From: a virus
Taxonomy: Duplodnaviria; Caudoviricetes
IMG/VR virus record: IMGVR_UViG_3300020718_000010
Location: 1 to 64,000 of that record
DNA: 64,000 nt
Reading direction: 5' to 3' (one strand)
In this document: positions 220-35,278 of the stretch, in pieces
Numbering within the stretch: position 1 is the first letter of the stretch
Layout: each line of letters opens with the position of its first letter
Position numbers and translations under genes: made by a program
The notes under the pieces: model-generated
Seen by the model: only the letters and a program-made list of their open reading frames with translations
The model's database searches: none
Told to the model about the DNA's origin: nothing

Positions 220-351
220 CTACTCATCCTTCTTTGCCTTGTGCTTCATAGTCCCTTTGTAGCCAAGGTAAAGCAAAGAGGAAATGATTCCGACGCCAAG
301 CAAGTCAGTAACGATAAAGAATGTCCACTTGGCCGCTCTTTTTTTATTCAC
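220..351 (-). CDS. Small membrane protein, 43 aa (not in ORF track)
   Basis: GTG start overlapping upstream gene end; VNKKRAAKWTFFIVTDLLGVGIISSLLYLGYKGTMKHKAKKDE*, one hydrophobic segment. Confidence 0.55.
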   Translation of the reverse strand: MNKKRAAKWTFFIVTDLLGVGIISSLLYLGYKGTMKHKAKKDE

Positions 352-691
352 CGCTTGCCCTTTGTCTTTCATAAAACTCTAAGTCCATGCGTTCTTGAAT
401 TCGTTTCTCTCTCTTCTTTGCGTTCCGGCGGTCACGTACTTCTTGTGACTGTGTGAACTTCTTTTGGTACTGCGTTATTGCTGTTGTGCAAGGCTGACAT
501 CTGCACTTCCAGTATTTGTAACCGCCTACTGTTCCGTGTTTTACAGAAGAGCCTTTTGCGCCTTTTCCCTTTGGCTGTTCGTGCTTGGTCCCAGTGGTGT
601 TCTTTCTATTTGTCTCATAAGGACCGTAAACATTTAATGGCACCTTTTCTAAGTCACCCTCAAGGGTGACAATCCATTTCATCTGCTCCAT
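344..691 (-). CDS. Hypothetical protein with HGT-x3-Y-x3-CRC-x2-C zinc-binding motif
   Basis: HGTVGGYKYWKCRCQPC motif of a type common in actinobacteriophage small proteins; 1-nt overlap with upstream gene. Confidence 0.65.
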   Translation of the reverse strand: MEQMKWIVTLEGDLEKVPLNVYGPYETNRKNTTGTKHEQPKGKGAKGSSVKHGTVGGYKYWKCRCQPCTTAITQYQKKFTQSQEVRDRRNAKKREKRIQERMDLEFYERQRASGE

Positions 692-1119
692 TACAAATCA
701 AACTTTCTAAAGAAACATTCTGCTTTTGGCACCGCTATGAACTCCTCGTCTTCTGTGTACATCGTGTCCTTGATTACAATACTGGACTCCAGTATTGTTT
801 GTCCACTCACGGAGAGGAAATGAGAACGTTCGTGGTTGAACATTATGAAGAATGTTCTCTCAGGGTTTGTTGCAAACTTAAGTTTGCGTGCGCTGAAGTG
901 AACTGTTGAGAATGGGAAGTCGGCGCCTTTCCAATTGTGCTTAACCTCAACTTCAAATTGGAACTGCTCGGCATTTTTTACTGCAAGGACATCGATGCCG
1001 TAGTCATCAGGGTTTACCCACGCAACGTATCCCTTAACGTCAGTTAACCATTCAATGAATTGGTCTTTTGCGTCATCATCATTGTTGTAAAGTTCGGCGC
1101 TAAAAGGTTTCTTGGCCAT
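691..1119 (-). CDS. PD-(D/E)XK-family nuclease-like protein
   Basis: PDDYGIDVLAV...FEVEVKHNW fits the PD-(D/E)xK catalytic signature; ATG at 1119 preferred over the 1128 start. Confidence 0.65.
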   Translation of the reverse strand: MAKKPFSAELYNNDDDAKDQFIEWLTDVKGYVAWVNPDDYGIDVLAVKNAEQFQFEVEVKHNWKGADFPFSTVHFSARKLKFATNPERTFFIMFNHERSHFLSVSGQTILESSIVIKDTMYTEDEEFIAVPKAECFFRKFDL

Positions 1120-1234
1120 CTTTGTCACCTAGGCAAAGCATGAACCCTAATCCATCTTCAAGTTCGGCCGATTCGCCGGGCTCGGTTTCATTGTGGGGCA
1201 ACCCACAAACGATGCAATAGTTTTCTTCACTCAT
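1100..1234 (-). CDS. Small Cys-containing protein, 44 aa
   Basis: MSEENYCIVCGLPH...LCLGDKDGQETF*; overlaps neighbours in operon fashion. Confidence 0.5.
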   Translation of the reverse strand: MSEENYCIVCGLPHNETEPGESAELEDGLGFMLCLGDKDGQETF

Positions 1235-1367
1235 CTAGGCCCCTTTTAATCTTGTCTACTATTTTGCTCATGTCGTCAAGTAACGCATATATGTTTTTTA
1301 ACGAGTCATTTAATGCCCACACACTTACAATGAAGTCTGCGTTCTCTAGTTCTTCCTCTTCATTCAT
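1227..1367 (-). CDS. Small acidic helical protein, 46 aa
   Basis: MNEEEELENADFIVSVWALNDSLKNIYALLDDMSKIVDKIKRGLDE*; start/stop overlaps with neighbours. Confidence 0.5.
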   Translation of the reverse strand: MNEEEELENADFIVSVWALNDSLKNIYALLDDMSKIVDKIKRGLDE

Positions 1368-1447
1368 TGGCTTTTCCAAATGTCGTGCGCAACAACCGCA
1401 ACTATTAACGCCATGACAATGGCAAGCATTACGTATGTGTTTGTCAT
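1364..1447 (-). CDS. Membrane micro-peptide, 27 aa
   Basis: MTNTYVMLAIVMALIVAVVAHDIWKSQ*; ATGA overlap with next gene. Confidence 0.4.
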   Translation of the reverse strand: MTNTYVMLAIVMALIVAVVAHDIWKSQ

Positions 1448-1466
1448 CTAATCATCCCCGCAACAA

Positions 1467-1574
1467 TTATTTAGGTGAAGCCAAGGCGAATATACCCAAC
1501 ATAACTACAAACCAAAGTAGCCAGAGTAATAGTCGTAGGTTTCTACGGTCTTGTGGATTAGTTATTCTGCGCAT
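1467..1574 (-). CDS. Membrane micro-peptide, 35 aa
   Basis: MRRITNPQDRRNLRLLLWLLWFVVMLGIFALASPK*; TAATG overlap places the start at 1574 rather than the ORF-track start. Confidence 0.5.
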   Translation of the reverse strand: MRRITNPQDRRNLRLLLWLLWFVVMLGIFALASPK

Positions 1575-1813
1575 TATTGCTCCATTGCCCAAATAGTAAT
1601 TAGAAATAGTACGGCTATGACTGGTACGTACCACATGGCAAGCCAGAAGGTGAAGTAAGCCAACAACGCTATAAAGCCAAGTATGGGTAGCCCAAACAAA
1701 ATTGTAAAGAGCGACCACACCCAAATTGAAGCAAACTTTTTTTGTGGTGAGTATGTTTGCCAGCGACGCTTTTTATACGCCCTATAAGAACGTCGTTGTT
1801 GTTTAGTGCTCAT
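1574..1813 (-). CDS. Small membrane protein with basic N-terminus
   Basis: Basic N-terminus followed by two hydrophobic segments; ATGA overlap at 1810-1813. Confidence 0.55.
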   Translation of the reverse strand: MSTKQQRRSYRAYKKRRWQTYSPQKKFASIWVWSLFTILFGLPILGFIALLAYFTFWLAMWYVPVIAVLFLITIWAMEQ

Positions 1814-1971
1814 CGTACCCACCTTTGGCTATGCGGCAACTGAAATGGCCTTGATACGTATTCGTCTTCAATGCGCTGACCACAATCAGGACAAAAAACA
1901 CTGGTGTGTTTCTTCTCAACAACCTCACCGCCGAAACCGGTTGTTTGCTTTAGGTGTGTGCATTCACTCAT
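1810..1971 (-). CDS. Small zinc-ribbon protein, 53 aa (not in ORF track)
   Basis: MSECTHL...FCPDCGQRIEDEY...WVR*; ATGA overlaps at both ends. Confidence 0.55.
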   Translation of the reverse strand: MSECTHLKQTTGFGGEVVEKKHTSVFCPDCGQRIEDEYVSRPFQLPHSQRWVR

Positions 1972-2264
1972 AGTTTCTTCCCACATTTAGGGCAGTGAGG
2001 CCACTTCTCACGTTGTGCGCTGATGTATTGGGTGGTGTTGTCTCCAATACTTCTGGCAAGAACATGGTTGCAGTCGGCCTGCGCCTGAAGGTTTTCTACC
2101 AACTCATTTCCTGTCATCGTTTTTCCAGAGGCACCTAACTCCGCTTCCCATGCGTCAAGTACTTTAATTACGTCGCAGGGGTAAGGGTTGCCGTCATAGT
2201 TACATTCTCTTTCTTTCCAAAGAAAATGTAGTTCCCGTAGTGATTGGCGCTCAGATTGATTCAT
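1968..2264 (-). CDS. Hypothetical protein with C-terminal zinc ribbon
   Basis: H...C...PYPC N-terminal motif and DCNHV...HCPKCGKKL C-terminus. Confidence 0.6.
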   Translation of the reverse strand: MNQSERQSLRELHFLWKERECNYDGNPYPCDVIKVLDAWEAELGASGKTMTGNELVENLQAQADCNHVLARSIGDNTTQYISAQREKWPHCPKCGKKL

Positions 2265-2458
2265 CGCCCCTCATTTGGTGCCCCGTATTGGTTCGTGCGC
2301 TCTTTAATTACGGTGTCCGCATTACCTACGGCCTCCTTGATAGCACGGTCAATGAACTCACTAAACAACTCTCCTGAATTAATCATTGCTTTAGCGATGC
2401 TAAGCAACTCTTCCCCAGTAAAGTCAATTTCAATTGATGATGTCTTCTTGTCGCTCAC
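2261..2458 (-). CDS. Small protein, possibly ribbon-helix-helix DNA-binding
   Basis: IEIDFTGEELLSIAKAM...FSEFIDRAIKEAV has a strand-helix-helix pattern. Confidence 0.45.
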   Translation of the reverse strand: MSDKKTSSIEIDFTGEELLSIAKAMINSGELFSEFIDRAIKEAVGNADTVIKERTNQYGAPNEGR

Positions 2459-2546
2459 GGTTTTCCCACTCGCTTTCTTTTGTCTTATTAATTTGGCGGG
2501 TTAATTCTTCTGATAGTTCAGCATCGGTTGGGTTAATCTCACTCAA
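2430..2546 (-). CDS. Small acidic ORF, 38 aa
   Basis: TTG start; LSEINPTDAELSEELTRQINKTKESEWENRERQEDIIN*; fills the gap between two genes. Confidence 0.3.
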   Translation of the reverse strand: MSEINPTDAELSEELTRQINKTKESEWENRERQEDIIN

Positions 2547-2751
2547 GGCCAACCCCCTTGTTGTACGTGGAAATTGGAGCCATGACAACTTCAGGATGGT
2601 TTATCCAATAAACAACGGCCTGCATTGCGGTGGTGTAACCACGATGCCATTGCAGTTTTAACTCGTCTGCATCTTCGCTGTCATCTAGGTCACCCATAAC
2701 CTCACAAAAGTTCTTAACTTCCTCTACGGTTCTCTCTCTAGTCATGTTCAT
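2539..2751 (-). CDS. Hypothetical protein
   Basis: 70-aa ORF overlapping neighbours in the same-strand operon. Confidence 0.55.
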   Translation of the reverse strand: MNMTRERTVEEVKNFCEVMGDLDDSEDADELKLQWHRGYTTAMQAVVYWINHPEVVMAPISTYNKGVGLE

Positions 2752-3280
2752 TCTCCTGTCCGGTTAATTCATCAAGAACTCTCATTACTTTTTCGTAAGC
2801 GTTGGCTTCTTCATTCCGACGTTTTGCCCACGAATGCTCTGCCATCTTCTCTAGGTTGATTTTTAGTGCATTGATAGTGCTGTTCAAAGAATTGTTTTCG
2901 CTAATTAAATCGTTTCGTTCATTGTCAACAATTCTTTCAATGAACGGCTTGTCTTCCTTAACAAGTCGGTCAATACTCTTTTGCCAAGATTGACCCCAGT
3001 TATCTCCGGCCCCAAGCGCCTCTGCTTGCCATGAGTTTTTACTTAAGTCTGGAGAAAGAACGGCGTCAGCAATGTAGTCCTCAATGGTGTCGCCCTTGAT
3101 GCTAGATAGTTTTTGTATTGCGCCAAACTCTTCATGCGTAAAAAAAATAGTTACGGCGAGTCTGTCGCTTTCTTTAAATTGAGATGGTGTTGGTATCACG
3201 TTCTGCAATTGTTGTCTTTGTGGTGAAACAATTCCCTCAAGCAGTTCAGTTATGTAGTCCAGTTTTTGGCTAGTGCCCAT
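2738..3280 (-). CDS. Hypothetical protein with RHH-like segment and C-terminal coiled coil
   Basis: VTIFFTHEEFGAIQKL...TIEDYIADAV segment; heptad-rich C-terminus; AGGAG SD. Confidence 0.6.
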   Translation of the reverse strand: MGTSQKLDYITELLEGIVSPQRQQLQNVIPTPSQFKESDRLAVTIFFTHEEFGAIQKLSSIKGDTIEDYIADAVLSPDLSKNSWQAEALGAGDNWGQSWQKSIDRLVKEDKPFIERIVDNERNDLISENNSLNSTINALKINLEKMAEHSWAKRRNEEANAYEKVMRVLDELTGQENEHD

Positions 3281-3282
3281 AA

Positions 3283-3672
3283 TTACTCCTTTTCTAATTT
3301 TGTTTGGATGTTTTTAACTTCGTTCCATTGTTCTTTGCCAGCGTCTAATCCATTTTGAGTTATTTGCTTTGCGGTTGCCATGTTCCGTTGGTGGTTGGCG
3401 TCAATTTCTGCATACGCCTCAACCGTCCTTTTTAAACAATTGGCAACCCTAGTTGCGTAATCCTCATTTGATAAATCCCCATTGATTAAACCCTGCGTTA
3501 GGAAAGATTCATCATAGGCGAGGGCTGTAGCAACTTGATGCTTTTCCCACTTCATTACGTTGGCAAACATTTCATCTAATTGAGTTGTTAAATAGCCAAG
3601 CCTTTCGGATGCCGCAAGTATTTCTGAAACCAATTCTTCGCTAGGCATTTGTGGTTGTTCGTTTTCAAACAC
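3283..3672 (-). CDS. Hypothetical helical protein
   Basis: 129-aa ORF, GTG start overlapping upstream stop. Confidence 0.6.
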   Translation of the reverse strand: MFENEQPQMPSEELVSEILAASERLGYLTTQLDEMFANVMKWEKHQVATALAYDESFLTQGLINGDLSNEDYATRVANCLKRTVEAYAEIDANHQRNMATAKQITQNGLDAGKEQWNEVKNIQTKLEKE

Positions 3673-3817
3673 GGCGCAACCAGTCCATCAAATCATTTAC
3701 GTGATACGCCACGCCAACTTTTGCCCCTTGATGTTTTAGTTGGACAATAAGAAGTTCTTCAAGGCGGTCTATCGCCTCTTGACGTTTGCGCTCACGGCGC
3801 TTTTCTAGCAGTTTCAT
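3665..3817 (-). CDS. Small basic protein, 50 aa, leaderless (not in ORF track)
   Basis: MKLLEKRRERKRQEAIDRLEELLIVQLKHQGAKVGVAYHVNDLMDWLRRV*; ATG 7 nt below a TACAGT -10. Confidence 0.6.
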   Translation of the reverse strand: MKLLEKRRERKRQEAIDRLEELLIVQLKHQGAKVGVAYHVNDLMDWLRRV

Positions 3818-3824
3818 AGGAGAA

Positions 3825-3853
3825 ACTGTACCGGTGTACAGCAGTTAAGTCAA
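3825..3853 (-). promoter_or_regulatory. sigma70-type promoter TTGACT-N17-TACAGT
   Basis: Near-consensus hexamers, 17-nt spacer, ATG 7 nt downstream. Confidence 0.75.
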
Positions 3854-3902
3854 GTAATTAAGAGTACAGATTATTGACTTTGATGATGAAACTTTGCATC
3901 CT

Positions 3903-3977
3903 TGGCTGGTCAGGTAGGACTCGAACCTACAACCACCTCATTAACAGTGAGGTGCACTGCCATTGTGCTACTGACCA
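3903..3977 (-). tRNA. trnN: tRNA-Asn (GUU), CCA encoded
   Basis: TGGTCAG/CTGACCA acceptor stem, GCAC/GTGC D-stem, CCTCA-CTGTTAA-TGAGG anticodon arm, GTAGG-TTCGAGT-CCTAC T-arm, ends GCCA. Confidence 0.97.
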
Positions 3978-4199
3978 CTACTTTTGTTTACGTTCATCCT
4001 TGCGCCAATTTAAAAACGCTTTGATGTACATGGTGCAGTATAGGACTCCGCCAAACACAAAACCGTATTGGTGGGTAGTAAGTGAGTAAATAAACCAAAG
4101 AGTTTCGGTCAGCAGCATTACAGCAAATCCCCATAAGTTCTTTTTACCAACAAAGAACAAGCCTGTTGAGCCAACTATGGCGAGTATCCATGACCACAT
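3978..4199 (-). CDS. PnuC-like small membrane protein (3 TM)
   Basis: W-x-LAIVG...GKKNLWGF...LWFIYSL..HQYGF pattern of phage PnuC-like half-transporters. Confidence 0.6.
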   Translation of the reverse strand: MWSWILAIVGSTGLFFVGKKNLWGFAVMLLTETLWFIYSLTTHQYGFVFGGVLYCTMYIKAFLNWRKDERKQK

Positions 4200-4201
4200 A
4201 G

Positions 4202-5422
4202 TTAGTTCCCCTCACGCTTTAAAGCACCGAGTGGCAAGCCTAACCGGTGCATAGCGTCCTTGGGTATGGAAACGTCTTCACTCCATGAGTTATAGATGTC
4301 TTCAGTAATGCTGAACTTGTAGTCCCCAATTTGGAATTTAATCTTTGGTGACTTTGGTGTTGGGTTTTTACCAGAAAGCACATCGTTAAAGTCTTCTTCG
4401 TCATAACCCGTACCCTCAAGGGTGGTTAGTGACTTAAGCGCTGCTATCAACATCTCTGAGTCGTATGTTGCTTTGTCGGCAATTCTGTTGTCAGCCAAAA
4501 CAATTTTGGCCGCAGCGTCATCGTCAACGTCAACCCAAACAACTGCCACTTCTTTCCAGCCAAGTGCTGATGCAGCAGCGACCGTATGGTTTCCCTTAAG
4601 AATTTGGTTATTGCGCTTGTTTACAACAATGGGTCGGTACTGGCCAAGTATGCGGAGGCTTTCGCTGATGGCCCCAACGTCGCCTTCACGAGGATTGGCT
4701 GGGTAGCGCTTGAGGCTTGAAATTTGTTCTAGCGTTGTCTCCACCATGCTGATGTCTTGGGCGCTCTCCTGAGGCTTTTTAGACCCCTTAGAAGGCTTCT
4801 TGGGCTTTGGTTCGGTTGGTATGTCTAGGCGACTGCGTATTTCTTTAATGATGGTGGCTTTTTTACCACCGACGGAATCTTTAATGTTGTCTTCCCAAAG
4901 TCCATAAAGTTCATTTTCCAATTCCCCAACAAAAAACCCAAGCCTGAATGAAATCTTTTTTTCGCCCGTTTCGTTTGTTTCGTCTGTCTTTTCATTTTCC
5001 AAAAGTGGCTCATGAGCAACTCCACCAGATGCTTCTTTGTAAAGGCCATCTAGTTCATCTAGATACGATTTGTCGTATCCGGTTCCCTCTAGGTCAGGGA
5101 CCGACCTCAATAAGTCAAGCAAAATACTGTTGTCATACATGGAAATGTCGCTGGTTCGATTATCTGTAATCAATACTTGAAGGGCCTCATCTTCTGTCCC
5201 CTCAAAATAAGTGACTGCTATTTTCTTCCAACCCAATGATTTAGCGGCTTTCCACGTATGGGTCCCGGCAATAACGGTCTTTCCGTGGACAACAATTGGT
5301 GAATACTGTCCATTAACTTCAAGAGATTCTGCAATTGCAGCAACGTCACCGAGCCGAGGGTTCTTAGGGTGCGCCTGTAGCGAGTCGATGTCTACAGTTT
5401 CTGCTCGCACATTGATTGTCAT
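4202..5422 (-). CDS. Tandem ParB/Srx-like N-terminal domain protein (two copies)
   Basis: Two copies of L..HP.NPR.GDV.AI.ESL...GQY.PIVV....I.G.HT..AA..LGW...DNR; probable start ATG 5422, 7 nt below TAGAAT. Confidence 0.85.
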   Translation of the reverse strand: MTINVRAETVDIDSLQAHPKNPRLGDVAAIAESLEVNGQYSPIVVHGKTVIAGTHTWKAAKSLGWKKIAVTYFEGTEDEALQVLITDNRTSDISMYDNSILLDLLRSVPDLEGTGYDKSYLDELDGLYKEASGGVAHEPLLENEKTDETNETGEKKISFRLGFFVGELENELYGLWEDNIKDSVGGKKATIIKEIRSRLDIPTEPKPKKPSKGSKKPQESAQDISMVETTLEQISSLKRYPANPREGDVGAISESLRILGQYRPIVVNKRNNQILKGNHTVAAASALGWKEVAVVWVDVDDDAAAKIVLADNRIADKATYDSEMLIAALKSLTTLEGTGYDEEDFNDVLSGKNPTPKSPKIKFQIGDYKFSITEDIYNSWSEDVSIPKDAMHRLGLPLGALKREGN

Positions 5423-5465
5423 AACAACAATTCTAGTATGCGAGTCGTTTTGTTTTCTTTTACTA

Positions 5466-5593
5466 AAGCAGCAATCCCCCCATTTCGGTGGGGGGAAAGC
5501 GCTTAAAGCATTTTTAGTGTCGGAAATACTAAACCCCCTCCGCCTTGGATGAGGTGAACTCACATTAATTGAGCACGGGAACTTAATGCAAGT
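5466..5593 (+). ncRNA. Candidate structured RNA or 5' leader (unassigned family)
   Basis: Three to four hairpins including a UUCG-capped stem; all four wobble pairs are G-U only in the + orientation; possible loop pseudoknot. Confidence 0.5.
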
Positions 5594-5663
5594 CAATTAA
5601 CCAAGATTTTGTAATGCTGGTGTAGATTTGAATGCAGGAACGCCCCTACGGAGGTACAAACCA

Positions 5664-6182
5664 GTGTCAGAATCTTTCCACCCAAAGTCATTGCTAAAGA
5701 GCGCATCGAACTATCCTGCTGCCCTTTTCCCTGAAGGCTTTAAAGCAAACAGCGATTTCGACAAGTCATCGCTTGACCTCATGAACCGTGCTGGCGCCAT
5801 CGTCGACCGTCACGAAGATGCACAACTAGGTGGACTCACCAAACTAAACGCTGATGACTGGGTTGACCTTGCCAATAAGCACAAAGCACTTTGTGAAGCA
5901 CACCTTGCTTTGGCTGAAGCGCTAAAGGCCTCTGGTTCTGAACTAAACATTCAAGCAGTTGGTGCCCATGATGCAGCGTCAAAGGCTCACGCAGGCGCTT
6001 CAAAAGTTGCAGAGATGATGAACGTTCCTGTTGGCATGGCAGCAACAATGCCTCAAGGTCAAGAGCAAGTTGTTTATGCTCACGAAGGTTGGGACAGCCC
6101 AATGAAGGCATGGAAGGCAGCACACCGTGCTTTCATTGCTTCTAAAGGCGCTTACGACCGCACAGTTTTTGAAACTGAATAA
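5664..6182 (+). CDS. His/Ala-rich helical hypothetical protein A
   Basis: GGAGG SD then GTG at 5664; H-x6-H spaced His in Ala-rich helices. Confidence 0.75.
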   Translation: MSESFHPKSLLKSASNYPAALFPEGFKANSDFDKSSLDLMNRAGAIVDRHEDAQLGGLTKLNADDWVDLANKHKALCEAHLALAEALKASGSELNIQAVGAHDAASKAHAGASKVAEMMNVPVGMAATMPQGQEQVVYAHEGWDSPMKAWKAAHRAFIASKGAYDRTVFETE

Positions 6183-6185
6183 TTT

Positions 6186-6590
6186 ATGTCCGGTTTTTCT
6201 GCTGAAGAACTTCTTTACCCTTTAACAAAAAAACTTGTTAGACACAGTTCTGTTGGTCAAAAATCTGCATCCTTAGTTGGAGAAGCAAACGGACTACACC
6301 TAAATCAAAGTGGTGACCACTTGGGCCGTGCTAAAAAACACCGTAAGGTTGCCGAAAGCCACCGTGCAATTGCAATTACTTTACGTGGCGCTGGTTACAT
6401 TAACGCAGCAAACGCTCATGAAGAAGCCGCTGAATCTCATGAGAATGCCGCCAATGCTCATGAATTAGTTGAAGACGCATCGGGTGGTTCTGTTGCATCA
6501 AACGGTTTAACTTCAGACGCCGCCAACACTGCATCTGGTGAAGCAGCCGGTGCAAGCGCATCTGCTGGCGCAGCAACAACTGCTGCTTAA
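6186..6590 (+). CDS. His/Ala-rich helical hypothetical protein B (paralog of A)
   Basis: AKKHRKVAESHRAIA..L..AG..INAANAHEEAAESH aligns with protein A; 3-nt gap. Confidence 0.75.
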   Translation: MSGFSAEELLYPLTKKLVRHSSVGQKSASLVGEANGLHLNQSGDHLGRAKKHRKVAESHRAIAITLRGAGYINAANAHEEAAESHENAANAHELVEDASGGSVASNGLTSDAANTASGEAAGASASAGAATTAA

Positions 6591-9043
6591 GAAGCCTGAG
6601 CCATTCCTCGCTCAGCAAGGGCGACCAACAAGTCACCAATAACTGAATTCTCTTCGTTGTCATCTTCATCTGTACCGTCAATAGCACGGTCAACAATGTT
6701 TCTTTTGTGAGAAATCAATGCAGCAATGTCCTCATCAATTGTGTTTGCGGTAAGCATTAACCATGCTGTCACTGAGTCTTTTTGACCAATGCGGTGGCAA
6801 CGGTCTGCACCCTGCTCCATGTCCGATGGTGTCCAACCTTGTTCTAGAAACAGCACATCACTTGCTGCGGTCAATGTCAAGCCAACACCTGCAGCCTTAA
6901 TGTTGCAAGCAATAACTTTTTGACCATCAGAGTTTTGGAAAAGGTCAACGGCTTCTTGACGGCGCTCTGCCGTAATGCCACCTTGAATCTTTACTCCATT
7001 ACTAAAGTTGATAGCGATATCGTCAACTGTTGCTCGGTGCCATCCAAACACAACAAGTTTTTTATCATTCTCAAGAAAGTTTTTAATCCATTCTTGAGCA
7101 GCGCTCATTTTTGCTTTTGCGGCCAATTGTTTGAGTGTGCTGATTGATACAAGTTGTTCAGCGGCTTTTGCACGCAGGGCTTTGCGCCATGCGGCATCTT
7201 GCGCTTCCTGAGTGTCTGCACCAGCCTCACGAGCCAACTGTAGAGCAAGTTCTGCCAAATACTTAACAATGTCAGCCTCGGCTTTTCTGTACTCTTTCAT
7301 GACCTGAGCGTCTCCCTCAACCACAACGTGGCTCCAACGCTTTGGTGGCAATTCTTTAAGCACGTCTGCTTTACGACGGCGCACGTAGCAAGAAGCACGA
7401 AGTTTGCGGTTTAAAGAGGCCAGCGAGCGTGAACTGGCACGGCCGTAAACATTGCGAAATTTAGTTGCACCACCAAATTCTTCTAAACGTTTTATCACTC
7501 TCAACTGGGTTATTAATTCCAATGGCTGATTAACAATTGGCGTTCCAGATAGGCATAACCTAATTCCGTTTTCTACCACTTTGTCACTTAATTGAATTGA
7601 GGCTTTTGAACGTTGTGCTGAACCGTTCTTTATGTAGTGGCTTTCGTCAAGAACTAAACCTTTAATTTCGGGGAATTTTTCAACCCAATAAGAAAGAATG
7701 TCGTAATTGATTACGTAGATGTCCGCCTCTGGAACTGTTCCAGATGTTCCATTAATTACTTTTACGTTTACATCTTTAATCCAATTGTGTGCTTCCCTCT
7801 CCCAGTTAAGTTTTAGTGAAGCGGGGCAAACGATAACGGCTGGAAATGCTTTAGCGGCCTTTAAACAGGCAAGTCCTTGGCTTGTCTTACCAAGGCCCAT
7901 TTCATCACCAATAAGGATGCCGCCCTCCGTTGGTTCTGTAAGTATCCACTCCCCCTCATCATGGACATAACCCATTGCACGCATTGAGTAAGCGACGCCT
8001 GCCCTTTGGAAAGGGAACAATTGATACAACTCGCTACCAAACCCATTGATAGTAATTTCTGCATCGCTTGCTGCACTGGCATTAATTACATCTTGAACAA
8101 GTCGACTATCTTCAACAAGCATTTCTGCTTCTTTTGAAAGGCTTGCTTTGTGTGTTTCGGTGAATTTAAGAACTTCATCCGCAGATTCAATAGGCACCAG
8201 CCATGCACGGAGTTGTGGTGACCATTCAGAACCCGGCATCTGTCTGACTTCACTAACAATTTGTGCGTCATAATTAAAGGTGATTGCAAAGTTATTGTTC
8301 TTAACGCCCACCATTGGATTGGTATCAATTTCCAATTCAGGCAACCAGTGAATGTCTTCGGTTACAAACAAACCATATTCTTTAGCCAATTTTTTGACAA
8401 TAGAAACCGACTCTTGTGGTGCGGTCCATTCCTTAGCGTCAGCATCCCACTTACGACCGGGAACCCCTGAGCGAATAGCATCAATTAAAGGGGCGTGGTA
8501 TTCAAACTTAAATCTAATAACGCCATTTTTTAAGTAGACATCACCAAGGTAGGTAGGTGCAGCCTTTGGTGCGGACTCAAGGATTGAACGTGCTTTATCG
8601 CTAACAGGAATGCCATTTCTACCAGCCCATTCAATCGCAACACCGTACTTTGAAACATCAACCTGCCATCCACGAAGGTCACGATTCCATCGTGCTGAAA
8701 GCGCACTTTTTGGAGATGCTGGGTCTTCGTATGGTAAAAAAACAAGAATCTTTCCATCTTTAAATTCAATTGCTCTTAAGCCCTTAGGACCATTTATGTT
8801 TTGTGGTTCAGAAATTAAATCGTAATCAATACCAGCACGAAGTAATTGATTCTTGTACTTAGAAATCATCACCCATGCTTCACGTTGAACTTGTGGGGTC
8901 CATGCTTCCGGGGATACGGATGCAAGTGCTTTTCCAAATTTAGAATCTGGTCCATTAAAACCAATTCCATCTTGCGTTACGGCGCCATCACAAAACCCTG
9001 CAAGGGTTTGCACAGCACGAGCAAGTGTCGGGTCAGTGGCCAT
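6587..9043 (-). CDS. SNF2-family (SMARCAL1/HARP-like) helicase with repeated N-terminal HARP-like domains
   Basis: GDEMGLGKT (I), LDESHYIKN (II), SGTP (III), QGADRCHRIGQ (VI); three N-terminal W-x-W-x-V repeats. Confidence 0.92.
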   Translation of the reverse strand: MATDPTLARAVQTLAGFCDGAVTQDGIGFNGPDSKFGKALASVSPEAWTPQVQREAWVMISKYKNQLLRAGIDYDLISEPQNINGPKGLRAIEFKDGKILVFLPYEDPASPKSALSARWNRDLRGWQVDVSKYGVAIEWAGRNGIPVSDKARSILESAPKAAPTYLGDVYLKNGVIRFKFEYHAPLIDAIRSGVPGRKWDADAKEWTAPQESVSIVKKLAKEYGLFVTEDIHWLPELEIDTNPMVGVKNNNFAITFNYDAQIVSEVRQMPGSEWSPQLRAWLVPIESADEVLKFTETHKASLSKEAEMLVEDSRLVQDVINASAASDAEITINGFGSELYQLFPFQRAGVAYSMRAMGYVHDEGEWILTEPTEGGILIGDEMGLGKTSQGLACLKAAKAFPAVIVCPASLKLNWEREAHNWIKDVNVKVINGTSGTVPEADIYVINYDILSYWVEKFPEIKGLVLDESHYIKNGSAQRSKASIQLSDKVVENGIRLCLSGTPIVNQPLELITQLRVIKRLEEFGGATKFRNVYGRASSRSLASLNRKLRASCYVRRRKADVLKELPPKRWSHVVVEGDAQVMKEYRKAEADIVKYLAELALQLAREAGADTQEAQDAAWRKALRAKAAEQLVSISTLKQLAAKAKMSAAQEWIKNFLENDKKLVVFGWHRATVDDIAINFSNGVKIQGGITAERRQEAVDLFQNSDGQKVIACNIKAAGVGLTLTAASDVLFLEQGWTPSDMEQGADRCHRIGQKDSVTAWLMLTANTIDEDIAALISHKRNIVDRAIDGTDEDDNEENSVIGDLLVALAERGMAQAS

Positions 9044-9049
9044 TTATAA

Positions 9050-9078
9050 AGTATACAGGGGTGTAGTAACACCCACAA
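9050..9078 (-). promoter_or_regulatory. Promoter TTGTGG-N17-TATACT for a leaderless helicase mRNA
   Basis: TATACT 6 nt upstream of ATG 9043; no SD. Confidence 0.7.
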
Positions 9079-9081
9079 GAC

Positions 9082-9345
9082 TTATTTGTCTCGGTTGTGA
9101 TGCTTGTAAAGTGCTTGGTCTGTTGTCTCAGCCCATTCAGCAATCTTTCGCCATGTAACTCCGTGGTTACGAAGGCGTGTAACCGTCTGACGGCGCTCTT
9201 TTCCTAATTCAATTACTTCTTGTTCATGCTTGCGCATTTGACGGCAAATGTCACGAATGTGTGAAAGGAGTGAAGCAACTTCTGGTGACGATGTTTCGTC
9301 CATTTCTTTGCGGTTTGGAAGAGGGGTAACTGGGTCAATTGGCAT
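9082..9345 (-). CDS. Helix-turn-helix DNA-binding protein
   Basis: RRQTVTRLRNHGVTWRKIAEWAETTDQALYK HTH pattern; AAGGAG SD; TATACT -10 at 9368-9373. Confidence 0.8.
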   Translation of the reverse strand: MPIDPVTPLPNRKEMDETSSPEVASLLSHIRDICRQMRKHEQEVIELGKERRQTVTRLRNHGVTWRKIAEWAETTDQALYKHHNRDK

Positions 9346-9446
9346 ATGGTTCTCCTTGGTGAGTTTTAGTATAGTGGGGTTTCCAAAAGTGGGTTGGTAT
9401 ACGGTGGTTCCCTTTTAGGGATAAGTGCCTCATTGGGCTGACGCAA

Positions 9447-9542
9447 TTAGAAGTTCTTTGCAATCAAAGCAATAACAAGTACAGAAACTTGTCCAAGGGC
9501 GAAAACAACAAGAAGTTCGTTGTGTTCAATCCACTTTTTCAT
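9447..9542 (-). CDS. Membrane micro-peptide, 31 aa (not in ORF track)
   Basis: MKKWIEHNELLVVFALGQVSVLVIALIAKNF*; overlaps the end of the RusA gene. Confidence 0.4.
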   Translation of the reverse strand: MKKWIEHNELLVVFALGQVSVLVIALIAKNF

Positions 9543-9909
9543 GTACATATTCTACCTCAGTAATAAAAATCTCTAGTGCGTCACGGCCCATTTGAGGTGC
9601 TAAAAAAGTAAGTTTTACAACAATGTTTGCGTGGTCATCAACCAAAACTCCCGCATCAACGAGTCCGTCAATTGCTGCTTTGACGTGTGGGAAACAAGCG
9701 CCAACATCTTGCCTGTATCTACCATTTAAAACATAAGGTTGCACAGTAACTTCTATTTGCTCCATACTTGGGAGCATTGCGTCCCTCGCTAAATCGCAAA
9801 ACGCTTGACGCCATTCTTTAACGATTCTTGCCCTAACCATGTGGTGAGCACGACGTTCATTGTTTAACGTAAAGTCAGGTCGCTTTTCGTATGTAAGTAC
9901 ATACGTCAT
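9526..9909 (-). CDS. rusA: RusA-like Holliday junction resolvase
   Basis: QDVGAC..HVKAAIDGLVDAGVLVDD catalytic Asp/Lys pattern. Confidence 0.8.
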   Translation of the reverse strand: MTYVLTYEKRPDFTLNNERRAHHMVRARIVKEWRQAFCDLARDAMLPSMEQIEVTVQPYVLNGRYRQDVGACFPHVKAAIDGLVDAGVLVDDHANIVVKLTFLAPQMGRDALEIFITEVEYVHEKVD

Positions 9910-10397
9910 AGGTCCAAAATTTTATAAGGTGCCCGTGCCATTGTTCCATGTTGCGTTGCCGCTTTTAATGCAATGGTCAATCGGTCTTTTGGTGTAACAG
10001 TTGTTCCGTCTAATGCAAACAATGCACCTAGTGCAATTGCCTCTCCGCCGCCAACGCTTCCGTAATTTTCACGACACTTAACAACAGCAAAGTCATCAGT
10101 GATGTAATAAATTCCGCTCATGTTTACAACAAGAAGTTCTGCACCCCAATCGGAAGGTGTGTTGTTACGCCCTTCCCAAATTGTTGCAAGATGGTCACGC
10201 AATGCGTATGGGTCACCAATACCAGAATCTCTTGCAATCTCACCCTGTCGAAACGACCCAGCAATTCCAATTAAAGAATCCTCTGCTTTCCAAACCTTTG
10301 GGTCAGTTGCAATGGTGACAGTATCGTCTGAGAAAGCCCCTGAGTCTCCGCCTATCCAAGCGCTTTTTTTATCGAACCATCCAACAATTACCGTCAT
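9906..10397 (-). CDS. HslV/proteasome beta-like Ntn-hydrolase
   Basis: Met-Thr start TVIVG, GGDS, KVWK, IAG, GGG..IALGAL; leaderless behind TAGGCT. Confidence 0.75.
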   Translation of the reverse strand: MTVIVGWFDKKSAWIGGDSGAFSDDTVTIATDPKVWKAEDSLIGIAGSFRQGEIARDSGIGDPYALRDHLATIWEGRNNTPSDWGAELLVVNMSGIYYITDDFAVVKCRENYGSVGGGEAIALGALFALDGTTVTPKDRLTIALKAATQHGTMARAPYKILDL

Positions 10398-10432
10398 GGG
10401 AACCAGCCTACTCGGGCTATTTCAGCCAACAA

Positions 10433-10627
10433 CTATGGTTTAGTTTGCGCTAAATGCTTTGCAACGGCCGCTTTTGCTTGCGCCTCTGTAAACCATCGTG
10501 CGTCTTCCCAGCCACATGAACAGAATGGTTGGTGAAGGTCGGTATTCATCATTGATGATTTGTAAACCTCAATCTCAATTTCGTGAGATGAGTTTCCCTC
10601 GGCTACTTTTGGTTTTTTAGTTGCCAC
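10433..10627 (-). CDS. Small zinc-finger protein
   Basis: H..FCSCGW...A...H motif; GTG start at 10627 overlapping the upstream gene end. Confidence 0.6.
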   Translation of the reverse strand: MATKKPKVAEGNSSHEIEIEVYKSSMMNTDLHQPFCSCGWEDARWFTEAQAKAAVAKHLAQTKP

Positions 10628-10877
10628 CGTAACGACCACGCTTAATGCGCTTCCAGTAAACGCCACTTTGGTCGCCAATAAATTCCCAATGGTCGTTGCA
10701 AGTAACGCCCTCTTGTTCTCCAAGGCACTGCCAGATACTTCCGATTGGATATGAGCCAATAGGAATCTCGCAGTTGTGTGGAATGTAAATCATTGCACCC
10801 TTTGGTGCTTGTTCTTCGTTTGACTCAAAGACATCAGAAACGTCACTTGGGTCAATGTCAATAATTTCGTTGGACAT
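10617..10877 (-). CDS. Small zinc-binding protein
   Basis: HNC..P......GSIWQC......C...W motif typical of actinophage small proteins; GAGG SD. Confidence 0.65.
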   Translation of the reverse strand: MSNEIIDIDPSDVSDVFESNEEQAPKGAMIYIPHNCEIPIGSYPIGSIWQCLGEQEGVTCNDHWEFIGDQSGVYWKRIKRGRYGGN

Positions 10878-10910
10878 TATTCCTCTTTCGCTATACCCCG
10901 ATACTAGCGA

Positions 10911-11450
10911 CTAAGACCACTTGTGTGCAAGGAATAAAGTTGTTGGTGTTACTCCATAGATATCTGGCCACCCTTGGAACCACCCACCGTAACGAAGGGC
11001 CTCCGCAGATACTGCGCTGCAAACCCATGTTCCATTTCGTCTAAATGAAATAAACCATTCTGGCGTCAGGATGTCAAGACTAATGCAGAAAATTGAGCCT
11101 AGGCCGTAAGAATCTCCTAGTTGTTTTTCAACAAACTCCGCAACTTTCTTGGGGTCGCATCCTTCGGGTGGTGTAAAAATAGATATGACAGAAGATTTTT
11201 TTATTAAATCTTTCATCTTTGAACGGATAACCCCACGAAGTGTTGCTTGAATAATTTCAACTTCATCCCAGTTTGAGCCTTCTTTAGTAACAACAAATAC
11301 GTGATTGTATTTTCCGTCACGCCATTTTAGTTTTTCTCCAACACGAATAAGAAAACCAAGCGCTCCAGTAGTTCGTGCAAACCCAATGTCGCCAACACGA
11401 ACTTTGTCTGCTGTTTTATTAATTCCGGTAAAAAGATGAGTAGTTGTCAT
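10911..11450 (-). CDS. Permuted papain-like (NlpC/P60, YiiX/YebB-type) amidase
   Basis: GDIGF...YNHVFVV...QAT..GV...LGDSY...WVCSAVSAE: His precedes catalytic Cys. Confidence 0.8.
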   Translation of the reverse strand: MTTTHLFTGINKTADKVRVGDIGFARTTGALGFLIRVGEKLKWRDGKYNHVFVVTKEGSNWDEVEIIQATLRGVIRSKMKDLIKKSSVISIFTPPEGCDPKKVAEFVEKQLGDSYGLGSIFCISLDILTPEWFISFRRNGTWVCSAVSAEALRYGGWFQGWPDIYGVTPTTLFLAHKWS

Positions 11451-11457
11451 AAGGCTT

Positions 11458-11847
11458 TTATTCTACTTCCCATGCGTGTTTTGTTAAACCTAGTTCGTGA
11501 GCAATTTTAGGATTGTCTTCCACCCACGAGTTGTGGTGATTACACAAAAGAATTATTCCTTCCATGTTTAAAAGATTTTTGTCGCTTTGCCCCGACCTTG
11601 CACGAGAAAGAATTTCGTGACCATTAACGTCACCAAAACACGGCGTACCAATAAGTTCTTTTCCTTGACACACCCACGTTTCACGTTTTCCAAAATGCTC
11701 AAGCATGGCTTCTTTGCGAAGTTTATTTACTTCCTTACGTCTGTCGCTTACGGGGTTTAATTTTGTTCGTTTCATTTGACTTTCGCCACGCTTAAGCGGT
11801 GTTCTTTTTAAACTATTAGTTCTTTTAAGTGGCTTTCGTCTTTCCAT
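11458..11847 (-). CDS. HNH-type endonuclease (NinG/Ref-like)
   Basis: Basic N-terminus, C...C pair, GHEILSRARSG, LLCNHHNSWVE. Confidence 0.7.
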   Translation of the reverse strand: MERRKPLKRTNSLKRTPLKRGESQMKRTKLNPVSDRRKEVNKLRKEAMLEHFGKRETWVCQGKELIGTPCFGDVNGHEILSRARSGQSDKNLLNMEGIILLCNHHNSWVEDNPKIAHELGLTKHAWEVE

Positions 11848-11849
11848 AC

Positions 11850-12371
11850 CTACGACGTTATAGCCAATAATTGCTCAGGATTTTCTATGCCTCCAACAGA
11901 AATTTCAGGCAATCTCAAATCAAAATTCTGTCTTTTTACAACTTCTGAATCCCTATCTTTTTTGTACTGCTCATACGCCTTAAGAAAATGAGCACGTAGT
12001 ATCTCAGGGCTTTCGCTAAAACAAAGAGTTCTATAACCAATTGCACCTACCGCACTTCTAACAGCACTGTTTGACCAATCCGGCTGACTCGAATGACCGT
12101 GTGACTGAATTGCGTATTGCACCTCCGACCAAGCCTCAATTGCTGATGGTGAAAGAATCCCCTGTGCTTCTGCAACCTTGCGTCGAATACCGGCAATGGT
12201 TGGATTCCATTCCTCAGTAGCGACCCAACCCTCTGCTGCTCTAAAGACCTCATTACCATCTAAGTCCTTCAACATCTCATGCCACATGGTTATTGAATCT
12301 TTGGTCCACTTAAGTGTTGGAAATGCCATCCCTAAAATGGCGCATACTTTTGCAGTTTCTGTTTTTGTCAT
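11850..12371 (-). CDS. Replicative helicase loader/inhibitor (SPP1 G39P-like)
   Basis: MTKTETAKVCAILGMAFP...WHEMLKDL...P.IAGIR; directly follows the initiator gene. Confidence 0.75.
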   Translation of the reverse strand: MTKTETAKVCAILGMAFPTLKWTKDSITMWHEMLKDLDGNEVFRAAEGWVATEEWNPTIAGIRRKVAEAQGILSPSAIEAWSEVQYAIQSHGHSSQPDWSNSAVRSAVGAIGYRTLCFSESPEILRAHFLKAYEQYKKDRDSEVVKRQNFDLRLPEISVGGIENPEQLLAITS

Positions 12372-13201
12372 CAATCCTCACCTGATAGAAAATCTTGAAT
12401 TGCGGAAACAATTCCGGGGCGTTGTTTTTTCTTTTCTTGAATTGCTTGAAGTCGAATACGGTCGTATTGAGTTCGTAATTTTTCTGGTGACAAAATATTT
12501 GCTGACCAAAAATCATGGCTTGTTACCCACAAAATTGCACGCTCAACCTCGGCGGGGTCACGCTCATCAATCCTGAGCATTTTTTCAACCGAGTAAACCC
12601 AAGCGTCGGTAACCGTAGGTCTCTTAGAACCGTTTTTCCTAATCTCGTCAGCCAGTAAATTTGCAAGTCGAACCGCATCGGGATTTTCCAAAGCCCCCTT
12701 TTCCGCTTTGCTTTTAGATTTGGTAGAAACGCTGGTTTCTCCGTTTGCGGATGCAACGGAGATTCTTTTATCAGTTCTTGCTTTAATCAGTTCTTGCTTA
12801 GAATCAGTACTTACTAAGTGGGGCACTTCACCGTCGACGGTGGAACCGTTCACGCTATTACCGTGCACGGTAAAACGCCCCACGGTCCCATCAGGGGAAA
12901 TGCAAATCTCATGAACAACACGGTCCGTATGAGTCCACTTTCCGTCCTCAGACATAAATTGCCCATTGTTTGTAACGTATCCGGCTTCCTCAAGTTCTTT
13001 CAGGATGCTTAAAACTTTTTCTTTTTTTGCCTTAGGACTTTCAGTGGCAAGGTGGCCAACAATGACTTGCCAGTGGTCTGGCTTCGATAGGAGGTAGGTT
13101 AAAAGCCCTCGTGCTTCCCACGATAGGCGTGAGTCTTCAATGGTTTCGTTTGGCAGAATTGTGAAGTTGTCTCGTATTGGTGATGGGGAGCGTCTAATCA
13201 T
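12371..13201 (-). CDS. Phage replication initiator protein
   Basis: NFTILPN..IED.RLSWEARGLLTYLLSKPDHW wHTH N-terminus; FWSANILSPEKLRTQYDRIRLQ C-terminus; AAGGAGG SD before ATG 13201. Confidence 0.85.
   Translation of the reverse strand: MIRRSPSPIRDNFTILPNETIEDSRLSWEARGLLTYLLSKPDHWQVIVGHLATESPKAKKEKVLSILKELEEAGYVTNNGQFMSEDGKWTHTDRVVHEICISPDGTVGRFTVHGNSVNGSTVDGEVPHLVSTDSKQELIKARTDKRISVASANGETSVSTKSKSKAEKGALENPDAVRLANLLADEIRKNGSKRPTVTDAWVYSVEKMLRIDERDPAEVERAILWVTSHDFWSANILSPEKLRTQYDRIRLQAIQEKKKQRPGIVSAIQDFLSGED
12830..12886. repeat. Four 15-bp-period iteron-like repeats inside the initiator gene (putative ori)
   Basis: ACCGTCGACGGT (12830), ACCGTTCACGCT (12845), ACCGTGCACGGT (12860), ACGCCCCACGGT (12875). 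Confidence 0.65.
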
Positions 13202-13276
13202 TGGAGCCTCCTTTCTTGATATTTGTAGAGGTCGGCGACGATACACTAAAAATGTCCGCCATGCACGTATGTTTAT

Positions 13277-13363
13277 TTGACCCTAAATAACAAGACCGTC
13301 CTAGAACCCGGTTGGGGCACTAAGACGGTCTTGGAGGGCTTAAAAAAGCCTTCTAGGGGTCAA
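13277..13363. other. Nested inverted-repeat structure between the recombinase and initiator genes
   Basis: TTGACCC/GGGTCAA outer stem enclosing AAGACCGTC/GACGGTCTT and GAGGGCTT/AAGCCTTC hairpins. Confidence 0.55.
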
Positions 13364-13383
13364 TCCGTCGATTCTAAATAGGC

Positions 13384-14328
13384 CTATTCCCCGCCGGATT
13401 CTGAAGAGGCAAGAACCTCATCAATTAGAACCTGAACGTCACCAATCTGCCCAAGATTAAGAGCAGTTACCTTTGGTAGGTTTGCCCCCTTCCAAAGGTC
13501 GGTTAAAAGACGGCGCTGATTTGGGGTCAAACTTTTAATCTCATTGGCCAAATCTTCACGTTCTTGTTCAACAGTTGAATCTGCACCGGTGGTAGAAACA
13601 GGAATTTCTACTTTGCGCTCAGGCTCTGGCTCTCCAGCCTGAAGCCAGTTCAGGAATGTCTTTGCAGCACCTGTTGCCTCACCAGCACGGAAAAGTTTGT
13701 CTGCCAATTCAGGGCAACGTGTTTTGTTGACATTGGTGTTGTGGTCGATGTCAAGGTCCAACACAAGTGTGAATTCATACTCAATGCCAGCACGTTGCTC
13801 GGGGGCAAGTCCAATCTTTTTTGGAGAAGCCTTCCCTCTCTCATCACGCTCGACGGACCACTCAGTCTTTGAACGCATAGAAGCAATTACGTGGCCATTG
13901 AAGGAGAGGATTCGGTCAATCATCTTTTGCTGGATAGGTGTAACAACTTTCCAGCCAGCAAAATTATTACCTCCAGATTTAGCGCCAGCACGGTCAGCCA
14001 TTTCTAGAATTCCACCCTCACCAGACCAAAAGTGTGTAAGTGAGTCAATAATTACAACCGCAAAGCCTTCGTTTTCGGCTGCATCTAAGTAATCAATTAA
14101 CTTTTGTGGTGAGTATGGCGGTGCAAAAGATAGTGAGTAAAAATCAAACTTATCGGCGTAAAGTTTTGCGCTGTCTCGTTCTGTGTCAATAAAAGCAATC
14201 TTGCCACCTTCAGCCAATTCGGTTGCCCAAAGAAGTGCTGAATAGGTTTTGCCCGCTCCCGACGGACCTGTTATGGCAATGCGTGCCTTTGATTCGGCCT
14301 TGGTGGCCTTGGTAAATAATCCACTCAT
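13384..14328 (-). CDS. Sak4-like AAA (RecA-fold) single-strand annealing protein
   Basis: ITGPSGAGKT Walker A, FIDTE, IIDSLTHFW Walker B, EYEF..V: AAA_24/Sak4 pattern. Confidence 0.85.
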   Translation of the reverse strand: MSGLFTKATKAESKARIAITGPSGAGKTYSALLWATELAEGGKIAFIDTERDSAKLYADKFDFYSLSFAPPYSPQKLIDYLDAAENEGFAVVIIDSLTHFWSGEGGILEMADRAGAKSGGNNFAGWKVVTPIQQKMIDRILSFNGHVIASMRSKTEWSVERDERGKASPKKIGLAPEQRAGIEYEFTLVLDLDIDHNTNVNKTRCPELADKLFRAGEATGAAKTFLNWLQAGEPEPERKVEIPVSTTGADSTVEQEREDLANEIKSLTPNQRRLLTDLWKGANLPKVTALNLGQIGDVQVLIDEVLASSESGGE

Positions 14329-15064: not shown

Positions 15065-15261
15065 TGTCAGAATTAAAAAATTACAACGAGCAACTTTTAA
15101 AAACTCTCGGCCATCTTATTAAAGCAAAAATTCCTGAACAAGAACTTGTTTGGGAAGAGCCTTCGCAGTGTGTGACATTTGATTTTGTTCACGAGGGATG
15201 GGGTTGTGGATACTTTATCCTTCGTGCTGATGGTACTTGGGATTGCATTCTTCCCGATTAA
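15064..15261 (+). CDS. Hypothetical protein
   Basis: 65-aa ORF with TAATG overlap to gam. Confidence 0.6.
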   Translation: MSELKNYNEQLLKTLGHLIKAKIPEQELVWEEPSQCVTFDFVHEGWGCGYFILRADGTWDCILPD

Positions 15262-15265
15262 ATAA

Positions 15266-15315
15266 ACAAAGCCCGTAGGTTTGGATTTCTCCGCCTACGG
15301 GCTTTGTTGTTTTTG
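15266..15315. terminator. Intrinsic terminator between convergent early and late genes (likely bidirectional)
   Basis: Perfect 14-bp stem ACAAAGCCCGTAGG/CCTACGGGCTTTGT flanked by A-rich and T-rich tracts. Confidence 0.85.
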
Positions 15316-15346
15316 ATTATCAGGTGTTAGTCACCTTAGAAATAAA

Positions 15347-35259: not shown

Positions 35260-35278
35260 TTGTCACCACCTTTCCTTA

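Follow-up and report, generated by a model that had tools for sequence, protein, structure and literature searches.

A two-hairpin module conserved near the helicase gene of a freshwater phage group may be a terminator region that has outlived its gene

The stretch at positions 5466 to 5593 of the window (64,000 nt, from the start of an IMG/VR virus record of 91 kb) carries two hairpins that recur together in at least six other lineages. In those relatives, the module starts 0 to 40 nt past the stop codon of a co-oriented gene and separates that gene from the next promoter. Our preferred reading, which in our judgment has an even chance of being right, is that the stretch is the end-of-gene terminator-region module of this phage group, orphaned in the window lineage and still selected as a terminator or insulator. 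The evidence agrees better with a stretch that polymerases enter from either side than with an RNA gene on a single strand.

Gene neighbourhood and putative promoters of the gap

The hairpin stretch sits inside the 241-nt gap between a leftward parB-like gene and the first of two rightward His/Ala-rich genes, the latter two being the sole plus-strand genes within 344-14328. The features of this locus are as follows.

3903-3977: tRNA-Asn downstream of parB, the sole tRNA detected (Rfam, ARAGORN)
4202-5422, minus: parB-like gene with two ParB_N domains (Pfam PF02195 and phrog_8071) and a leaderless-type ATG start at 5422
5430-5435, minus: putative parB -10 hexamer TAGAAT, 7 nt before the ATG
5464-5466, plus: TAA, at which alignments A2 and A5 place the stop codon of a co-oriented gene lying upstream in other lineages
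5466-5504: hairpin 1, core UCCCCCCAU-UUCG-GUGGGGGGA, with a 6-bp lower stem, an AA/AA internal loop, a 9-bp C6/G6 upper stem and a UUCG loop
5513-5533, plus: hairpin 2, 8 bp, built on the invariant word AGTGTCGG (5516-5523)
5533-5579: lineage-specific part with hairpin 3 (5541-5556, or alternatively 5533-5555), hairpin 4 (5559-5573) and a CCC/GGG closure
5565-5572 and 5593-5600: AT-rich perfect 8-bp inverted repeat, TTAATTGA/TCAATTAA, from a repeat search and the minus-strand minimum free energy (MFE) fold of haplotype B
5579-5597, plus: conserved word AACTTAATGCAAGTCAAT (1 of 500 shuffles as good)
5605-5628, plus: putative promoter box GATTTTGTAA..GGTG with -10 TAGATT, first His-rich gene
5636-5663, plus: putative short leader of about 28 nt, with the Shine-Dalgarno sequence GGAGG at 5651-5655, 8 nt upstream of the GTG at 5664
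5664-6590, plus: two His/Ala-rich genes, the first starting at GTG 5664

We infer the promoters of both diverging genes from conservation. On the parB side, TAGnnT stands 6 to 9 nt before the ATG in all 23 distinct upstream regions of relatives, and the alignment of 43 ParB relatives starts at residue 1. The same leaderless layout occurs elsewhere, at the helicase gene (TATACT, 6 nt, ATG) and at other genes of the window (5420-5435, 9043-9078, and 3817-3853), and suggests a host with frequent leaderless mRNAs. A hexamer of the wider form TAnnnT, 6 to 9 nt before start codons, was also noted upstream of parB in lineages L002 to L044, as well as before the helicase and other genes.

On the opposite side, the box and its spacing are the same in L045/L046, in L055, and in relatives with a compact gap, the His-like proteins of L045/L046 and L055 being 46 to 51% identical; GCAGGAACGCC is likewise conserved in L055. 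The box occurs as a single copy in the window, and a search of viral contigs with its pattern gave real matches solely in L045/L046. In most lineages, parB and the diverging His-like gene lie about 50 nt apart (43 ParB relatives), and this short gap holds the box GATTTCACTAA at its centre, flanked by two back-to-back TAGnnT hexamers that each precede an ATG by 6 to 7 nt. These compact-gap relatives, which are the closest by ParB, are without the hairpin module. Homologous His-like genes in relatives use the same box with leaders of 0 to 35 nt. Since the same box serves relatives without hairpins, and in the window lies downstream of the hairpins, the hairpin stretch is probably not the leader of the His-rich gene, as the earlier note had proposed for the two downstream genes. 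The hairpins would thus stand upstream of both core promoters, and the true leader of the first His-rich gene would be the stretch of about 28 nt listed above.

A weak sigma-70-like site, TTGATT-16-TAGTAT, is present at 5412-5439 on the plus strand; it scores 8 of 12 and was not called by the scan. Several other promoter readings were set aside. A minus-strand candidate, TTGACT-17-CTCAAT (5597-5569), has a poor -10 and a spacing that L022 does not share. A 'GATTTCAC box' as a repeated phage promoter class was dropped on its single copy in the window, and so were attempts to read the conserved words as sigma-54, boxA/boxB, or ECF-type sites, their spacing by eye being inconsistent.

The far end of the His-rich unit bears on the reading of the gap. 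At 6587-6590, the stop codons of the second His-rich gene (plus) and of a leftward SNF2 helicase gene (minus) overlap by 4 nt, and no terminator-like site is predicted at these convergent stops; the His-rich and helicase transcription units should read into each other there. At the near end, the TAA at 5464-5466 has no preceding open reading frame in the window, with an in-frame TAG (5434-5436) nine codons upstream. A coding role for the gap itself was discarded, as a 2-nt indel at 5505-5506 shifts every frame. Public gene calls extend the first His-rich gene to 198 to 247 aa over the hairpins, where the frame happens to be open (L053:1386-2078, L056, and L063-L066); the 172-aa form matches all distant homologues, and the calls of 230 to 247 aa are over-extensions. 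Directly downstream of parB, a 73-aa, fragment-sized PnuC/NMN-transporter-like reading frame was also noted at 3978-4199 (Pfam E 4.7e-6, just under the cut-off).

Hairpins 1 and 2 in the window and in other lineages

Hairpin 1 has the stable GC-rich stem-loop of an intrinsic terminator. With its six consecutive G-C pairs, it folds at -23.9 kcal/mol on the plus strand and -24.0 kcal/mol on the minus strand, and nowhere else in the 91-kb record does noncoding sequence contain a perfect GC-rich hairpin of at least 8 bp. The plus strand continues 3′ of it with AAAGCGCUU, without a U-tract. On the minus strand the tail is AUUGCUGCUU, with 5 U in 10 nt (6 in 10 in haplotype B of a sister lineage); this U-tail is the weakest of the family and is partly paired within the lower stem. 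A simple terminator scan of the window did not call hairpin 1.

The module was recognized elsewhere by several searches. With a profile of the three haplotypes described below, nhmmer matched the part with hairpins 1 and 2 in L030, L031, L035 (E 3e-4), and L026, and at these four loci the match starts at the stop codon of the SNF2 helicase gene and is followed by a tRNA-Ala gene. Local alignments to L030 and L040 beat 500 of 500 shuffles, in the same orientation, and searches with a helicase profile and the word AGTGTCGG gave further copies in L246, L250, and L239. In L030, L026, L022, L040, and L246, the helicase stop marks the start of the module, which in L246 is on the same strand. It follows the stop of a gene with an N-terminal motif in L045 (gene X, sharing the motif with the His-rich proteins), in L239, where that gene is upstream and co-oriented, and in L250, where the module lies between the convergent helicase gene and the motif-bearing gene. 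In all lineages it is within about 1 kb of the helicase gene and co-oriented with the genes downstream. The position at the end of a transcription unit is seen in the relatives; the window has the relic TAA on the plus strand and the antisense of the His-rich genes on the minus strand. Hairpins 1 and 2 are kept between lineages whose helicases are just 61 to 80% identical.

The N-terminal motif, F-x4-L-L/M-x-S-x-S-N-Y-P or (D/E)FT(S/T)xxL(I/L)K, is an observation in its own right. It is common to consecutive, otherwise unrelated proteins, namely both His-rich proteins, gene X of L045, a 321-aa protein of L030, and the products of several genes convergent with the helicase gene (window 5664-5720 and 6186-6240; L045:237-300; L030:1799-1850 and 2710-2764; L231 and L228 downstream of the helicase). 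By analogy with internal virion proteins, it could be a targeting or cleavage signal.

Across the window and its relatives, the stems of hairpin 1 are GC-rich, at -20 to -26 kcal/mol. Corresponding MFE values for the plus and minus orientations were -21.3 and -23.4 in L030, -15.7 and -22.8 in L026, -19.4 and -23.3 in L040, -21.3 and -25.7 in L022, and -12.2 and -23.9 in L045, so that in these five lineages and in the window the hairpin is as good or better in the orientation of the window's minus strand. Its mismatches in L026, L045, L246, and L250 are C.A on the plus strand and G.U on the minus strand. After the stem, the minus orientation has a U-tract in L030, L026, L040, and L045 and a U-rich tail in L022 and the window; L040 and L045 have a U-tract in the plus orientation too, and in L030 and L026 it is found solely on the strand antisense to all neighbouring genes. 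In the relatives, hairpin 1 is preceded by an A-tract, followed by a U-tract, or both, and such flanks are the signature of one-way or two-way intrinsic terminators. In the L030-type lineage, a second hairpin of a C-run and a G-run (CCCCTC...GGGGGG; L030:2960-3000) adjoins the parB -10 hexamer, after a tRNA-Gln gene.

Hairpin 2 behaves differently from an ordinary terminator part. The invariant columns of a seven-lineage alignment are the C-run, the G-run, and AGTGTCGG, the last being unchanged in all seven. In the relatives, hairpin 2, recognizable by the word AGUGUCGG, comes 10 to 20 nt after hairpin 1 and is followed by an AT-rich, lineage-specific part. Its pattern in L030, L026, L246, L239, and L045 is NN-AGU-GUCGG-AUU-NN, with outer pairs that covary in L030, L246, L239, and L045 and a G-U conserved on the sense (plus) strand in five lineages. 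On the minus strand, merely 3 to 6 pairs and a 9-nt loop are left in the relatives compared. The invariant apex, the covarying outer pairs, and the sense-strand G-U exceed the needs of a terminator.

Folding, haplotypes, and the question of the strand

The earlier note had described four hairpins and a complementarity of the loop CAUUAA to UUAAUG further downstream, and all of these are present; the plus-strand MFE structure reproduces hairpins 1 and 2 and the CCC/GGG junction. This structure has an energy of -42.4 kcal/mol (z -2.49), and the minus strand one of -47.3 kcal/mol (z -3.30); for haplotype B, the z-scores are -1.8 and -3.15, respectively. By GC-corrected MFE, the segment starting at 5461 is 67th (plus) and 12th (minus) of 3193 overlapping 140-nt segments of the 64 kb, which puts the stretch ahead of about 98% and 99.6% of segments of its size. 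Other regions fold more strongly than the gap, those with the lowest GC-corrected energies of the 64 kb being 15181-15400 (z -5.2 on the plus strand at 15181), 13221-13420, 35061-35500, and 47161-47340.

The note had further taken its non-canonical pairs, all G-U on the plus strand, as a mark of selection on a plus-strand RNA. This test is unsafe because the stems were picked on that strand, which makes the argument circular. The minus strand folds better, and its MFE structure holds six G-U pairs, which would be A-C on the plus strand, versus four in the plus-strand structure. Over 120 nt, the minus strand is the more stable in 5 of 8 lineages. A plus-strand RNA spanning the whole element is also disfavoured by the hairpin 1 mismatches of four lineages, C.A on plus and G.U on minus, and by the minus-strand U-tracts or U-rich tails of six.

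From contigs of two sister lineages, the gap is known in three haplotypes: A, that of the window, B, and B′. The His-rich and ParB proteins of the sister clusters, one each, show 90 to 94% identity, and the next relatives at most 67%. Between A and B, divergence per site is 0.38 at four-fold positions next to the gap, in the flanking genes (264 of 688), 0.10 in the gap itself (24 of 241, with a 2-nt indel in addition), and 0.11 in the hairpin stretch (14 of 128). Third-codon divergence is 0.42 in the parB codons beside the gap versus 0.16 in the first 150 nt of the His-rich gene. Measured against the parB side, the gap is clearly constrained; against the His side this is less evident, and the low divergence could come partly from a locally younger segment rather than from selection.

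Individual changes are informative as to which pairs are kept. In the lower stem of hairpin 1, G5471A together with C5500U is a compensatory change between A and B. In haplotype B, six adjacent bases of the 3′ arm of hairpin 2 are replaced, giving a perfect 5-bp AGUGU/ACACU stem, shifted by one base. The changes A5552>G and C5561>U of haplotype B leave G-U on the plus strand, and each is also Watson-Crick in alternative pairings. T5511>G in B′ breaks the 5-bp GCAUU/AAUGC helix that closes the plus-strand MFE structure. A tRNA-like cloverleaf was rejected in view of the same broken helix and the lack of any detection by tRNA searches. As to the covariation that had been proposed as a check, pair counting over the three haplotypes is powerless (87% of cells paired, one compensatory pair, 162 of 500 shuffles as good).

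The distal part is of another kind. The MFE structure of 5533-5579 differs between haplotypes and between strands, and after hairpin 2 the relatives have just a weak conserved block. The AT-rich word CAUUAAUUGA has three mutually exclusive pairings, the proposed pseudoknot being one; its rivals are a long minus-strand hairpin (5557-5594) and the 8-bp perfect repeat with 5593-5600. Furthermore, C5563>G, found in haplotypes B and B′ (the L053 type), removes the sole G-C pair of the pseudoknot, and this part has no homologue outside the lineage. Thus, the complementarity noticed earlier is real and the pseudoknot itself is not borne out. The word at the far end has a wider distribution, as L022 and L023 share AACTT..AATGCAAGTCAAT (window 5579-5597). 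In L022 (1000-1035) and L023, a 17-nt insert divides this 18-nt word, and the word runs exactly up to the 5′ end of a tRNA-Gln gene, where it could be a promoter or a pre-tRNA leader.

Known RNA families gave no match, in agreement with the earlier note. With cmscan against 4227 Rfam families, nothing in the gap reached the gathering score and 5300-5800 was empty to E 10; ARAGORN and the Rfam tRNA model found no tRNA or tRNA-like element in the gap. The phage GenBank collection, searched in near and distant modes, held no match to the stretch, and the 91-kb record no paralogous copy of the element or its words. The exact core of hairpin 1 was absent from viral contigs, where a 14-mer scan gave chance-level matches only; a degenerate pattern of hairpins 1 and 2 gave only unrelated matches in JGI metagenome contigs. 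Two antisense pairings, of hairpin 4 with the parB mRNA start (10 of 11, and 6 of 11 in haplotype B) and of the 3′ arm of hairpin 1 with codons 4 to 7 of the His-rich gene (10 of 11), were set aside as chance-level, the former for the size of the region.

Readings of the module and known systems

According to the preferred reading, the upstream sense gene would have been lost in the window lineage, with only the aligned TAA remaining, and the module would now stand between the diverging core promoters, namely the parB -10 (5435-5430) and the His box and -10 (5605-5628). Hairpin 1, followed on the minus strand by UUGCUGCUUU, would halt read-through from the helicase operon, which crosses the antisense of the two His-rich genes, before it reaches the leaderless parB promoter. 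On the plus strand, the module would shield the His promoter from stray transcription starting around parB. Insulation of parB from leftward read-through is suggested because no terminator-like site is predicted at 6587-6590. It would not be obligatory, because the relatives with a 50-nt gap manage without the module. A plain terminator of the helicase gene does not explain the U-tracts of L030 and L026, which are present only on the antisense strand. The sequences show the hairpins with their tails, their conservation and homology, and their place at stop codons in relatives, and we infer the transcript ends, termination, and its direction.

A structured plus-strand RNA seems unlikely to us, whether as a noncoding RNA of its own or as a long 5′ leader to the His-rich genes; its promoter would overlap the parB start. 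This reading could draw on the weak TTGATT-16-TAGTAT site, on the better plus-strand form of hairpin 2 with its G-U in five lineages and covarying outer pairs, on the plus-strand pairs that A5552>G and C5561>U retain, and on the co-orientation of the module with downstream genes in every lineage. However, the upstream promoter candidate, at just 8 of 12, went uncalled, and the conserved His box lies beyond the hairpins and also serves hairpin-less relatives. Hairpin 1 has C.A on this strand in four lineages, the pseudoknot and closing helix are broken in sister haplotypes, no Rfam family matches, and the plus-strand z-scores of -2.5 (A) and -1.8 (B) are modest. Transcription in the other direction, as a minus-strand small RNA or a parB attenuator, is to our mind equally improbable. 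Here, the reverse complement of hairpin 2 would display the conserved word UCCGACACU or contain the -10-like GACACT, the reverse complement of hairpin 1 would act as the intrinsic terminator, and read-through would yield a leadered parB mRNA. The better minus-strand folding in both haplotypes (z -3.3 and -3.15) and in most lineages over 120 nt is in its favour, as are the greater stability of hairpin 1 on that strand, with U-tracts or U-rich tails in most lineages, and GACACT itself, which is a 5 of 6 match to the phage's own -10 TACACT and in L030 and L026 has TTGTAA 17 to 18 nt upstream. Yet the window is without a correctly spaced -35, and 5534-5600 offers no convincing alternative promoter on this strand. 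Haplotype B hides the conserved word in a 6-bp stem, the RNA would in L030-type phages be antisense to nothing beyond a stop codon, and the transcript would be hardly more than one hairpin.

The stretch may act as DNA, through operators for the diverging promoters or single-strand initiation or origin-type hairpins beside replication genes, although we hold this to be quite improbable. Its place upstream of both putative core promoters would suit such a role, as would the 8-bp inverted repeat TTAATTGA/TCAATTAA adjoining the promoter box, the persistence of AGTGTCGG and AATGCAAGTCAAT across lineages irrespective of their pairing partners, and the constant proximity to the helicase gene. However, the flanks of hairpins 1 and 2 vary and remain complementary around an asymmetric centre that is kept, which indicates a folded single strand rather than a symmetric duplex site; most mismatches in hairpin 1 are wobbles on one of the two strands, and the words are not repeated elsewhere in the genome. 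Least probable of all, in our estimate, is a functionless relic left by deletion of the upstream gene. The loss of the sense gene and of the plus-strand U-tract, the module-free 50-nt gap of the relatives closest by ParB, and the little-diverged 5′ end of the adjacent His-rich gene would be expected from it. Against it, divergence is 0.11 in the hairpins versus 0.42 at the adjacent parB third positions, hairpin 1 has a compensatory pair, and hairpin 2 regains a perfect 5-bp stem through the replacement of six bases.

That hairpins 1 and 2 are together an RNA element in their own right, conserved in this freshwater phage group and more than a terminator, is rather unlikely. In its favour, AGUGUCGG is invariant, the outer pairs of hairpin 2 covary in four lineages, and the module was retained after gene loss. 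The element could be a small minus-strand antisense or regulatory RNA ending in hairpin 1, or a plus-strand 3′-end or processing signal recognized by a protein, for which the invariant GUCGG loop could be the recognition site. Of the new phage noncoding RNA that had been suggested, a conserved, structured, noncoding element stands; a novel catalytic or ligand-binding RNA is not supported, as the relatives carry the conserved part at gene ends.

If the terminator-region reading is true, the finding is an ordinary one, in which a terminator region outlives its gene as a spacer between diverging promoters. The two-hairpin AGUGUCGG module travels with a block of helicase and motif-bearing genes in uncultured bog-lake phages, the contigs being from Trout Bog-type JGI samples and the stratified-lake set, and could be useful as a marker of the phage group or as a compact natural terminator part.

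The put sites of HK022, the nut sites of lambda, and the RNase III sites of T7 lie downstream of a promoter, within the transcript acted on. Our stretch resembles them in having several hairpins near early promoters and, in hairpin 1, a long stem with a symmetric internal loop. Unlike them, it has its conserved promoter downstream of the hairpins; there is no sequence or Rfam similarity, and a boxA/boxB pattern is not established. In Actinobacteria, terminators without a U-tract ('I-shaped') have been described, and leaderless promoters of the TAnnnT type are common. A strong hairpin after a stop codon with no sense U-tract, as in L030, L026, and the window, and the leaderless TAnnnT-type promoters of the phage are in line with these. 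In contrast, half of the lineages have U-tracts.

Bidirectional Rho-independent terminators are known from phages, e.g., T50 of LUZ7, with a GC-rich hairpin that is A-rich on one side and U-rich on the other (PMC10204088). The window differs from such terminators in having no sense gene to terminate and a weak, partly paired U-tail; furthermore, hairpin 2 with its invariant apex always accompanies hairpin 1. As with these terminators, the module of the relatives comes immediately after a stop codon, with convergent genes on either side in L250, and its sequence varies while the stem is kept.
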